Assembly: GCA_035637375.1 (NCBI GenBank) | Contig: DASPXL010000122.1 | Location: 1 to 30,453 of the forward strand | Length of the DNA stretch: 30,453 bases | Direction: 5' to 3' | From: Burkholderiales bacterium | GTDB taxonomy: Bacteria > Pseudomonadota > Gammaproteobacteria > Burkholderiales > SG8-39 | In this document: positions 19,923 through 22,700 of the stretch, piece after piece | How positions within the stretch are numbered: position 1 is the stretch's first letter | How the letters are laid out: each line of letters opens with the position of its first letter | Notes under the pieces: model-generated | Seen by the model: only the letters and a program-made list of their open reading frames with translations | Told to the model about the DNA's origin: nothing | Database searches by the model: none | Made by a program: the position numbers and the translations under genes

Positions 19923-20339
19923 CTACTTCGTGACTTGCTCCACTGCGAACGCCACCTGGCCGAAGCCCGCCTGTCGCGCCGCGTCCATGACGCGGATCAC
20001 CGACTGATGCGTGGCATTATTGTCGGCGTTGATGACGACGATCGGGCTCTTCATGCCGGCGCCGGCGCGGCGGAGTTCTTCGGCGAGGCTGGGAACATCC
20101 CGGAACTGGATCGGCTTTCGCTGCAGCTGGTATTGCCCGCCGGAGCTGATCGCAACGTTGATTTCGTTGGAACGCTCCAGCTGCTTTTCGGCGTCGGCGC
20201 TCGGCAGATTGATCTGCAGCTCCGCGAACTTGGAGTAGGTCGTCGTCAGCATCAGGAAAATGATGATCACCAGCAGCACGTCGATCATCGGAATCAGGTT
20301 GATTTCCGGATCTTCCTTGGGCCTGCGGGTAAACCTCAT
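19923..20339 (-). CDS. exbD: ExbD/TolR-family biopolymer transport protein
   Basis: EINLIPMIDVLLVIIIFLM single TM helix with the conserved Asp; INAD..A.HQSV..VMDAA. Confidence 0.9.
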   Translation of the reverse strand: MRFTRRPKEDPEINLIPMIDVLLVIIIFLMLTTTYSKFAELQINLPSADAEKQLERSNEINVAISSGGQYQLQRKPIQFRDVPSLAEELRRAGAGMKSPIVVINADNNATHQSVIRVMDAARQAGFGQVAFAVEQVTK

Positions 20340-20971
20340 GCCTCGGCGTGCGGGGGCTGCTGGAAGTCGAAGCGTTCGCCGTGGACCACGTCGACCAGCC
20401 GCGCCGCCTGCTGCTCCATTTCGATCACGAAGGTCTCGACCCGGCCGCGGAAGTGGCGGAAAAAGATCATCGCCGGAATCGCGATCACCAGGCCGAACCC
20501 CGTGTTGTACAGCGCCACGGAAATGCCGTGCGCGAGCTGCTGGGGGTTGGACCCGGAAGGCGACTGCGAGCCGAAAATCTCGATCATGCCGACCACCGTG
20601 CCGAACAGGCCCATGAGAGGGCTGATCGTGGCGATGGTGCCGAGCGTCGTCAGGAAGCGCTCGAGCTCGTGCGCCACGGCGCTACCGGCTTCCTCGATAG
20701 CGTCCTTCATGACTTGGCGGGGACTCTTGTGATTGCGCAAGCCCGAAGCGAGCACCTGCCCTAGCGGGGAATCCTGCGAGAGCTTCTCCAGCATTTCTTC
20801 ACTCACGCCCTGTTTCTCGTACGCCACGAGCACCCTTTCCAGCAGACCGTTTGGAACGATTTTTTCCTTGCGGAGGATGATGAACCGCTCGATGATGAGG
20901 GCAACTGCGATGATCGATACGGCAAGGAGGAAATAGATCGGCCAGCCCGCGGCCTGGATGATGGCGAACAA
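20336..20971 (-). CDS. exbB: MotA/TolQ/ExbB proton-channel protein
   Basis: FAIIQAAGWP..., LGTIA.ISPLMGLFGTV.GMI, GIS.AL..T.FGL.IAIPA. TTG start at 20971 with a GGAG SD; 4-nt overlap with exbD. Confidence 0.9.
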   Translation of the reverse strand: MFAIIQAAGWPIYFLLAVSIIAVALIIERFIILRKEKIVPNGLLERVLVAYEKQGVSEEMLEKLSQDSPLGQVLASGLRNHKSPRQVMKDAIEEAGSAVAHELERFLTTLGTIATISPLMGLFGTVVGMIEIFGSQSPSGSNPQQLAHGISVALYNTGFGLVIAIPAMIFFRHFRGRVETFVIEMEQQAARLVDVVHGERFDFQQPPHAEA

Positions 20972-20999
20972 CAGCGTTCTCCGGGTCAGACCCGCGCCC

Positions 21000-21028
21000 A
21001 CTTTAGCCTGCGACCGGGGATTCGGCAA
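21000..21028 (-). promoter_or_regulatory. Sigma70 promoter for exbB-exbD-lpxK-ycaR-kdsB
   Basis: TTGCCG-17 nt-TAAAGT on the minus strand; AT-rich palindrome GAAATATTTC at 21032-21041 just upstream. Confidence 0.55.
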
Positions 21029-21100
21029 GGCGAAATATTTCAAGAAGATGCGCCGCCCGGGTATGGAAAAAAGCGACGGCGACCGCGCCCATTACGGATG

Positions 21101-21116
21101 CCGAGCACGTGCTCGG
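21101..21116. repeat. Perfect 16-bp intergenic palindrome CCGAGCACGTGCTCGG
   Basis: Read directly from the sequence. Confidence 0.9.
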
Positions 21117-21124
21117 TGCCAAAC

Positions 21125-21161
21125 CCTTATCCACAAATACTGTGGATAAGGTTGTGCATAC
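21125..21161. promoter_or_regulatory. DnaA-box cluster: two perfect inverted boxes plus one 1-mismatch box
   Basis: TTATCCACA at 21127-21135, TGTGGATAA at 21141-21149 and TGTGCATAC at 21153-21161, against consensus TTWTNCACA. Confidence 0.8.
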
Positions 21162-21246
21162 CGGTAGGAAAGCGCGCGTAAGTGAATCGCGCAAAAGGAT
21201 TTTCTCCCTCCTGATGAAAACTTGACCTTTCATTTTTACTATTTCT

Positions 21247-21259
21247 GCTCAATAGCTTA
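21247..21259 (+). promoter_or_regulatory. IHF-like site
   Basis: GCTCAATAGCTTA matches WATCAANNNNTTR at 11 of 13 positions (four are N) and is preceded by a T-rich tract. Confidence 0.35.
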
Positions 21260-21321
21260 CGTCCTGCACTTCGGCCTTTGCATGAGCCGCTCATAGGGAG
21301 CCCAATCGCCGGGCGGCCCAT

Positions 21322-21338
21322 TGTGGATAGGTTACAAT
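21322..21338 (+). promoter_or_regulatory. xseA -10 (TACAAT) with an abutting 1-mismatch DnaA box (TGTGGATAG)
   Basis: Box at 21322-21330, TACAAT at 21333-21338, ATG at 21345. Confidence 0.6.
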
Positions 21339-21344
21339 CGGCCG

Positions 21345-22700
21345 ATGCGCGCAGAACAAGCACTGGCGCGGGTTTCCACGCCGTCTCCCCGGGAAATTCT
21401 CACCGTTTCAGCCCTTATTCGCAGCGTCCGGGACCTGATCGAGCATCGCTATCCCTTGCTCTGGGTTGCCGGCGAGATATCCAATTTCACCACCGCCAAG
21501 TCCGGACACGCCTATTTCGTCCTGAAAGACGAGCACGCGCAAGCGCGCTGCGTGATGTTCAGGCACCGGCACCGGGGTCTCGAATGGCTGCCGCGAGACG
21601 GGCTGCAGGTCGAAGCGCAGGTGCTCGTGACGATGTACGAGCCGCGCGGCGACTTTCAGCTCAACGTCGAAACCATGCGGCGCGCCGGACGCGGCGCGCT
21701 GTTCGAGGCTTTCCTGAGGCTTCGCGAGAGGCTCGAGAAAGAGGGCCTGTTCGAAACGGAAAAGAAGCGGCAGCTCCCCCCTTTCCCGCGCACGATCGGC
21801 GTGGTGACTTCGCGGGAGGCGGCAGCCTTGCGGGATGTGCTCACGACGCTCGAGCGGCGCGACCCGTCGGTCGCGGTCGTCCTCTTCCCGGTGAGGGTCC
21901 AGGGCGAGGGCGCGGCGGAGGAAATCGCAGCCGCGCTCGGAACCGCCGGCCGGCGGGGGGAGTGCGAGGTCCTGCTGCTGGTGCGCGGCGGCGGCAGCAT
22001 CGAGGACATGTGGGCGTTCAACGAAGAAATCGTGGCGCGCGCCGTTCGGGCGTGCCCGATTCCTGTCGTCACCGGCATCGGCCACGAGACGGACTTCACG
22101 ATCGCCGACTTTGCCGCCGACCGGCGCGCGCCCACGCCGACGGCTGCAGCGGAAATGGTGAGCCCGGAACGCACCCAGCTGCTCCACGTCATTTCCAGAC
22201 TGGCGGCACGCATCGGGCTGCGGGCCCGGCACGAGCTCGAGGGCCGCATGCTGCATGTCGACCACCTCGCGCGCAGGCTGGTCCACCCCGGCGCGAGGCT
22301 GCAGGCCCAGGGCGAGCTGCTGGGCCAGCTGCGGCTGAGACTCCGACAAGCCCTTGCCCGGGTGGTCGCAGAGCGGCAATGGCGGATCGCAGCGCTTTTG
22401 CAGCGCAGCCGGGCGCGGCTGCCCAATCTCGACGAACTCTCGGCGAGGTGGGTGCAGGCGATATCCCGGGTACGGGCAGGGACTCGCGCCCGCGTCGAAC
22501 GGGCCGCCGCCGATTGCGCGCGCCTCGCGGCGAGCCTCGCGCACCTGGACCCGGCCGCGGTACTGGAGCGCGGCTACAGCATCGTGCACAAGCTGGACGG
22601 CGGCATCGTGCGCGACAGCGCCGCCCTGGCCGTAGGAGAGTCGGTGGCTCTGCGCTTCGCCAGGGGGCGCGCCCGAGCGCGCATCGCCGCCAAAGACTGA
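21345..22700 (+). CDS. xseA: Exodeoxyribonuclease VII large subunit
   Basis: LTVSAL, WVAGEISNF..A.SGH.YF.LKD, YEPRG.FQL, IGVVTS..AA..D, V.RGGGSIED.WAFNEE, GIGHETD.TI.DF.AD.RA.TPTAAAE, L.RGYSIV. Confidence 0.96.
   Translation: MRAEQALARVSTPSPREILTVSALIRSVRDLIEHRYPLLWVAGEISNFTTAKSGHAYFVLKDEHAQARCVMFRHRHRGLEWLPRDGLQVEAQVLVTMYEPRGDFQLNVETMRRAGRGALFEAFLRLRERLEKEGLFETEKKRQLPPFPRTIGVVTSREAAALRDVLTTLERRDPSVAVVLFPVRVQGEGAAEEIAAALGTAGRRGECEVLLLVRGGGSIEDMWAFNEEIVARAVRACPIPVVTGIGHETDFTIADFAADRRAPTPTAAAEMVSPERTQLLHVISRLAARIGLRARHELEGRMLHVDHLARRLVHPGARLQAQGELLGQLRLRLRQALARVVAERQWRIAALLQRSRARLPNLDELSARWVQAISRVRAGTRARVERAAADCARLAASLAHLDPAAVLERGYSIVHKLDGGIVRDSAALAVGESVALRFARGRARARIAAKD

Follow-up and report, generated by a model that had tools for sequence, protein, structure and literature searches.

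A conserved four-box DnaA module with DARS-core geometry between exbB and xseA in a Burkholderiales bacterium

The spacer between the divergent genes exbB and xseA of this Burkholderiales bacterium holds a conserved DNA module of four boxes for the replication initiator DnaA. The module has the geometry of a DARS core and is neither a replication origin nor an RNA; DARS (DnaA-reactivating sequences) are sites of E. coli at which spent DnaA is recharged. The site was studied in a window of 30,453 nucleotides (the whole stretch of DNA that was analysed), which comes from a 2.08-Mb draft assembly of 463 contigs with a GC content of 66% and a completeness of about 77%. Judged from its sequence, the site is most likely a DNA element that controls replication and not an origin. 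We consider it very probable that positions 21127-21330 are a DnaA-bound module of the DARS-type family, and the analyses described below make it fairly probable that these ~205 bp act as a DARS-type module for the handling of DnaA. For nucleotide exchange as the function of the module, the balance tips only slightly in favor.

The initial annotation drew attention to a cluster of DnaA boxes at 21125-21161, and direct reading of the sequence leaves no doubt that the cluster is real (Table 1). Boxes I and II form an exact inverted repeat with 11-bp arms (CCTTATCCACA and TGTGGATAAGG) around the center AATAC, as had been described. Box III had been credited with a single mismatch, which holds against the consensus TTWTNCACA; against the strict 9-mer the count is two. 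A fourth box was found where it had been placed, with one mismatch. The fifth, weaker box that had been proposed at 21415-21423 did not survive: it has two mismatches, lies within the xseA coding sequence and is unconserved in the genus alignment, and is therefore attributed to chance.

Perfect DnaA boxes are no more frequent in the whole 2.08-Mb assembly than expected (four, versus 3.6), and two of the four are boxes I and II, which lie 5 bp apart. Boxes with at most one mismatch number five in the window, versus 1.36 expected. Clusters of three or more such boxes within 500 bp occur at one place in the whole assembly besides the exbB-xseA site. That other cluster, at C100:3123-3281, is composed of the one-mismatch boxes ATATCCACA, TGATCCACA and TTATCCACG, all on the + strand, and could be part of the real oriC region. 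On the exbB side of the module, 10 bp before box I, there is also a 16-nt perfect palindrome, CCGAGCACGTGCTCGG (21101-21116). It is not conserved in congeneric spacers and probably lies outside the module. The true start of exbB may be a few codons further in than the coordinates in Table 1 indicate.

Table 1. Features of the exbB-xseA site and of the second module in the assembly
Feature	Position	Strand	Basis or remark
exbB/tolQ-type gene	20336..21043	-	Pfam MotA_ExbB; left neighbor of the DnaA-box module
exbB-exbD-lpxK, exbB first		-	Pfam MotA_ExbB, ExbD, LpxK
DnaA box I, TTATCCACA	21127-21135	+	perfect; direct sequence reading
Spacer between boxes I and II			5 bp, AATAC
DnaA box II, TGTGGATAA	21141-21149	-	perfect, inverted; direct sequence reading
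Spacer between boxes II and III			3 bp, GGT
DnaA box III, TGTGCATAC (read on the + strand)	21153-21161	-	orientation as box II
Conserved non-coding flank	21162..21321	.	70-83% identity across the genus
Flank island TAAGTGAATCG	21179-21189
Flank island AAAGGATTTT	21194-21203
Flank island TGATGAAAACTTGACC	21212-21227
IHF-like site GCTCAATAGCTTA	21247-21259		2 mismatches to WATCAANNNNTTR; offset ~120 from box I
DnaA box IV, TGTGGATAG	21322-21330	-	1 mismatch; orientation as boxes II and III
Putative -10 hexamer of xseA, TACAAT	21333..21338	+	6 nt before the ATG; read from the sequence
xseA, exodeoxyribonuclease VII large subunit	21345..22700	+	ATG at 21345; Pfam Exonuc_VII_L (3.7e-100) and OB fold
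Second module, degenerate	C418:2454-2664	-	between hemE and priA (L222)

Comparison of the spacer with 40 relatives by BLAST revealed that conservation starts exactly at box I and continues to the start of xseA; the exbB side of the spacer is unconserved, both in this search and in the genus alignment. Both perfect boxes, at their 5-bp spacing, are kept in all of the 20 congeneric loci (20/20). The sequence TGTGCATA of box III is nearly invariant in the same loci, several islands of the flank are common to them, and box IV is conserved not only in the genus but also across families. The nearest named loci with an xseA-exbB context belong to Sulfuritalea, Propionivibrio and Rhodocyclaceae MAGs, with an XseA identity of only 47-67%. 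Extra copies of the motif in one genome (G008) turned out to be more xseA-exbB spacers from co-binned strains, and were rejected as new sites.

A survey of the order covered 29 families, with one genome each; the three-box layout was scored in the 450 bp that precede xseA. The complete triple box, with no more than 5 mismatches among 27 positions, was found in 23 of the 28 assessable families (29 examined). Among the other families, one had 6 mismatches, one had boxes II and III only, and in one a contig end interrupted the locus. The best of the shuffled controls (n = 580) had 10 mismatches. The triple box precedes xseA by 150-410 bp and never changes orientation, box III being nearest to xseA, and in most of the families that carry it exbB-exbD are found on the opposite side. 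At this location box II matches perfectly in 22 of the 29 families, and box I usually carries one mismatch. Conservation in orthologous spacers had been set in advance as a test of the initial annotation's proposal; the boxes are kept across the genus and in most families of the order.

Box IV begins at an offset of 195 from the start of box I, 2 bp 5' of TACAAT and 15 bp 5' of the xseA ATG. At the putative xseA -10, GGTTACAATCG is conserved in the genus, and TTGTGGATAGGTTACAATCG is common to congeneric loci before the ATG. The TACAAT and the ATG (window positions 21333-21347) are accompanied by neither a Shine-Dalgarno sequence nor a recognizable -35, an arrangement that is kept across the genus. 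The location of TACAAT just 6 nt before the ATG implies a leaderless mRNA, and on this reading of the sequence xseA is probably leaderless. Promoters had been assigned to 21000-21028 and to the vicinity of 21335, but a sigma-70 consensus scan of 20800-21600 called none on either strand; the putative xseA -10 was not called because no -35 is present. The IHF-like site in the flank (Table 1) was detected at two mismatches, and a scan of the exbB-xseA spacer for the IHF consensus at no more than one mismatch returned none.

The geometry of the core is not peculiar to the xseA locus. The exact perfect pair at 5 bp was found in 16 of 201 genomes of the order, one per genome except for a single genome with two, and the reversed control pattern was never found in these 201 genomes. 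In the class, 166 of 401 genomes contain a perfect head-to-head pair with a spacer of 0-14 bp; the spacer is exactly 5 bp in all but 3 of the approximately 75 places listed, and the reversed-pattern control had a match in one genome of the 401. The number of modules per genome in the class scan ranges from one to five. Species-representative genomes were scanned for the perfect pair together with TGTG at 3 bp, which yielded at least 120 loci. Among the matches listed, nearly all are from Gamma- or Betaproteobacteria, including Pseudomonas, Legionella, Lysobacterales, Woeseiaceae, Nitrosomonas, Sulfuritalea, Propionivibrio, Duganella and others, and none of the matches listed adjoins dnaA. The gene contexts vary with lineage: xseA-exbB in Rhodocyclaceae-like lineages, hemE-priA in Duganella and another family, a DUF1232 gene in Pseudomonas, and others. 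A variant was seen in one genome of the order (L028, G184:C7:75391-75453), where a perfect twin box lies within a longer palindrome, GGCTTTTTC ... GAAAAAGCC. This variant is without box III at 3 bp and stands in a different gene context.

To characterize the sequences adjoining the core, 81 loci with the core were aligned on box I. In most of them a further DnaA box, oriented like boxes II and III, is present at offset 191-206. The aligned modules also contain an island, ATCAANNNNTTA, which equals the IHF consensus, near offset 120-135, and the IHF-like site in the flank of the exbB-xseA module aligns with it. A flank-only profile was then made from 50 modules outside xseA contexts, stripped of their 35-nt core, and run against the whole assembly; circularity was avoided because the core was masked and xseA contexts were left out of the profile. 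It has two matches only in the assembly, at C418:2623-2458 (E = 0.006) and at 21179-21283 of the window (a weak match, E = 0.047), and both of these places carry a core with DARS geometry. The core of the C418 module, directly before the profile match, reads TTTTTCACA, 5 bp, TGTGAGTAA, 3 bp, TGTGAATAA, and its fourth box, TGTGCATAA, is at offset 190. In the hemE-priA spacer the full layout is present in 10 of 30 genomes (this genome included), and boxes II and III are present in about eight more. The exbB-xseA core opens a four-box module of ~205 bp, copies of which stand beside unrelated genes across Beta- and Gammaproteobacteria.

E. coli DnaA is well established as a transcription factor, and the boxes might serve only as an operator through which DnaA represses or activates xseA, and possibly also the divergent exbB-exbD-lpxK operon, without taking part in the DnaA nucleotide cycle. 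The place of box IV in the xseA promoter region, immediately before the conserved TACAAT, would be just as natural for a plain transcriptional operator. Other families, too, have a box directly before a TAGAAT or TAGTAT that precedes xseA, and the synteny with xseA is deep. However, the four-box module is also found with equal spacings beside unrelated genes (hemE-priA, DUF1232 and others), and neither a strict 5-bp head-to-head pair nor a conserved flank of 160 bp would be required of a simple operator. We consider it unlikely, though worth keeping in view, that the boxes are an operator and nothing else; regulation of xseA is compatible with the DARS-type reading, and the two are not exclusive.

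The window is without dnaA, as the initial annotation had stated. The gene was found instead on contig C201 (C201:18424-19424, L001), where it runs off the contig end, with its 5' end and the upstream region, the usual oriC neighborhood, missing. The product of this 5'-truncated gene is 58% identical to E. coli DnaA. All of the DNA-reading residues that were checked are conserved (R399, R407, Q408, D433, H434 and T435), and with these residues kept the protein should read the same box. Together with the perfect consensus boxes, they lead us to infer that DnaA binds the module. The protein also keeps K178, D235, R285, L290, R334, F239 and K243. In E. coli DnaA, DARS-dependent release of ADP needs Gln208 and Leu290, and Phe239 and Lys243 assist (PMC6868365). 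The position of E. coli Gln208 is occupied by Ser in the source DnaA and by Thr in a genome of the same family (G041). This substitution is a genuine caveat to DARS action, and the requirement for Gln208 is known for E. coli DnaA only.

Other components of the system were found in the assembly. Hda is encoded at C343:422-1063 (215 bits, versus a curated cut-off of 194.8), indicating that a DnaA ATP/ADP cycle exists, and IHF-alpha is present with a score above its curated cut-off. A search for Fis by HTH_8, which reported only long open frames, did not identify it.

The same components enter the case for a module that acts negatively on initiation, either as a DnaA sink (titration) or as a datA-like site that promotes the hydrolysis of DnaA-ATP. 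Two perfect and two near-perfect boxes would suit such a role, as would IHF with an IHF-like site in the flank, and Hda with the nucleotide cycle that its presence implies. The datA-like alternative had been offered by the initial annotation, but the layout of the boxes does not favor it: an inverted pair at 5 bp with a third box at 3 bp is the signature of DARS, not of datA. A sink or a datA-like site is in our judgment improbable, although recharging, titration and ATP hydrolysis are indistinguishable on the basis of sequence alone.

The conserved block is not a structured RNA. An Rfam scan of 20300-22000 gave chance-level matches only, and the consensus structure of the flank in the genus alignment has just 5 pairs (-0.98 kcal/mol) and no compensatory changes. 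Folds of the single sequence are uninformative: the + strand of the block does no better than shuffles (z-score -0.14), and the palindromes themselves explain the z-score of -4.1 for the - strand. The 160-bp conserved non-coding block and the exact palindrome with 11-bp arms could have suggested a small RNA or the operator of another dimeric regulator; given these folding results, the match of both arms to the DnaA consensus at 9 of 9 positions, and the non-palindromic boxes III and IV that follow the DARS layout, the chance of either is very small.

The initial annotation had also raised the possibility of an atypical origin, for which a DnaA-box cluster beside an AT-richer stretch, between divergent genes, might speak. 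The GC skew, which was assessed in the window and in a same-family genome of 6 contigs, the source assembly being in 463 contigs, argues otherwise. Within the window there is no switch at 21.1 kb, and in the same-family genome the skew is uniformly negative across 400 kb centered on the orthologous site (200 kb to either side), with dnaA on another contig. In closed genomes of the order in which the core was read upstream of xseA (G043, G081 and G058), the distance between dnaA and xseA is 0.31, 0.71 and 1.5 Mb, respectively; in two more closed genomes (G029 and G076), for which only the distance was taken, it is 1.3 and 0.56 Mb. The site has neither the GC-skew minimum nor the proximity to dnaA that mark oriC, and is, as DARS are, a non-coding chromosomal site away from oriC. 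Skew and dnaA distance rule out a chromosomal origin at exbB-xseA, and with a module that is present one to five times per genome, the likelihood of any origin here, chromosomal or second and cryptic, is negligible. Annotators should not mistake perfect inverted DnaA boxes that lie far from dnaA for origins.

The layout of a DARS core is present, with the head-to-head pair at 5 bp and box III at 3 bp in the orientation of box II, and Hda provides for an ATP/ADP cycle on which a DARS could act. We infer looping, nucleotide exchange and an effect on xseA, and propose that the DARS-type module may operate as follows. DnaA would bind the perfect box II and recruit to box I, at a distance of 5 bp, a second protomer in head-to-head arrangement; box III, at 3 bp, would take up a third protomer head-to-tail. 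The conserved flank, which has the IHF-like site about midway, and box IV, ~195 bp away, could then bend back onto this complex. If E. coli DARS1 and DARS2 are a guide, the assembly would loosen ADP from ADP-DnaA, the activity that defines a DARS, and the apo-DnaA would rebind ATP, which would leave the initiator recharged for a further round. The abutment of box IV on the -10 of xseA suggests a second, transcriptional output: DnaA on box IV may also throttle transcription of the probably leaderless xseA, much as E. coli DARS1 overlaps the uvrB promoter P3.

Our literature search found no DARS characterized outside E. coli and none in Betaproteobacteria, no DnaA boxes at xseA, and no description of an xseA-exbB or hemE-priA site. 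Experimentally characterized DARS are those of E. coli only in the searchable literature, and primary papers confine the DARS2 core to close relatives, tying it to the E. coli-related Gammaproteobacteria (Kasho 2014). According to reviews, many proteobacteria contain DARS1- and DARS2-like sequences (PMC10380432), and relatives from the beta- and gamma-proteobacteria are mentioned in a 2017 review. The earlier remark that such an element is uncharacterized in this lineage is borne out as far as the searchable literature goes, but DARS-like sequences had already been reported for many proteobacteria in these reviews.

A broader proposal, which we put forward tentatively and with more doubt than confidence, is that Betaproteobacteria carry two ancient, syntenic DARS-type modules, at exbB-xseA and hemE-priA, of a ~205-bp four-box form that is common to many Gammaproteobacteria, together with a DnaA that is without Gln208. 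If this is true, initiator recharging would be much more ancient, and its mechanism more flexible, than the E. coli model suggests; alternatively, the primary job of the module could differ, for example in coupling the status of DnaA to genes for repair or replication restart (xseA, priA). The xseA module and its hemE-priA counterpart are test objects for the question of whether DNA-driven recharging of DnaA nucleotides is general in proteobacteria. They could also reveal whether recharging needs Gln208, and what the conserved flank and the fourth box contribute.

The closest known systems are the two DARS of E. coli. In the genome record of E. coli K-12, the DARS1 core, in the bioD-uvrB spacer, reads TTATCCACT, 5 bp, TGTGGATAA, 3 bp (CCA), TGTGTATTA, and the DARS2 core, in the rppH/ygdT-mutH spacer, reads TTATTCACC, 5 bp, TGTGGATAG, 3 bp (AGT), TGTGAAGAA. 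Both are identical to the exbB-xseA core in box order, box orientations, and the 5-bp and 3-bp spacings, and it is this identity, with the conservation of the boxes described above, that supports the DARS-like reading of the initial annotation. Boxes I and II of DARS, which are in opposite orientation and 5 bp apart, are essential, and their spacing is functionally relevant (Sugiyama et al. 2019, PMC6868365). The genome studied here has two modules with DARS geometry, just as E. coli has two DARS.

The likeness to DARS1 extends to the nucleotide level, with 26 of 35 core positions equal. Box II, which is the perfect box of DARS1 (PMC6868365), is perfect in both, and both elements are intergenic and lie just upstream of a DNA-repair gene (uvrB and xseA, respectively). 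They differ in that box I is also perfect at exbB-xseA, in that the element here extends into a conserved flank with a fourth box ~195 bp away, and in lineage and neighboring genes, as well as in a DnaA without Gln208. The flank recalls DARS2, a regulated DARS with IHF and Fis sites at fixed distances in its flank, which has an IHF site at offset 109 (IHF-like site here, ~120) and a further DnaA box at offset 211 (195 here), and in closed relatives of the source genome the location is often mid-replichore, another likeness to DARS2. However, the distal box of E. coli DARS2 is oppositely oriented, and the IHF-like site here is degenerate, with 2 mismatches.

With datA, which works with IHF, the module shares the character of a non-coding DnaA-box cluster that lies outside oriC, and it may likewise work with IHF. 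However, datA is not known to have the inverted pair at 5 bp and the third box at 3 bp, its boxes being otherwise arranged around an IHF site, and it acts opposite to DARS, by ATP hydrolysis. In the DnaA-regulated promoters of uvrB (P3), dnaA and nrdAB a DnaA box overlaps the core promoter, much as box IV lies at the putative xseA -10. Those operators are gene-specific, whereas the module described here recurs with a fixed architecture beside unrelated genes.
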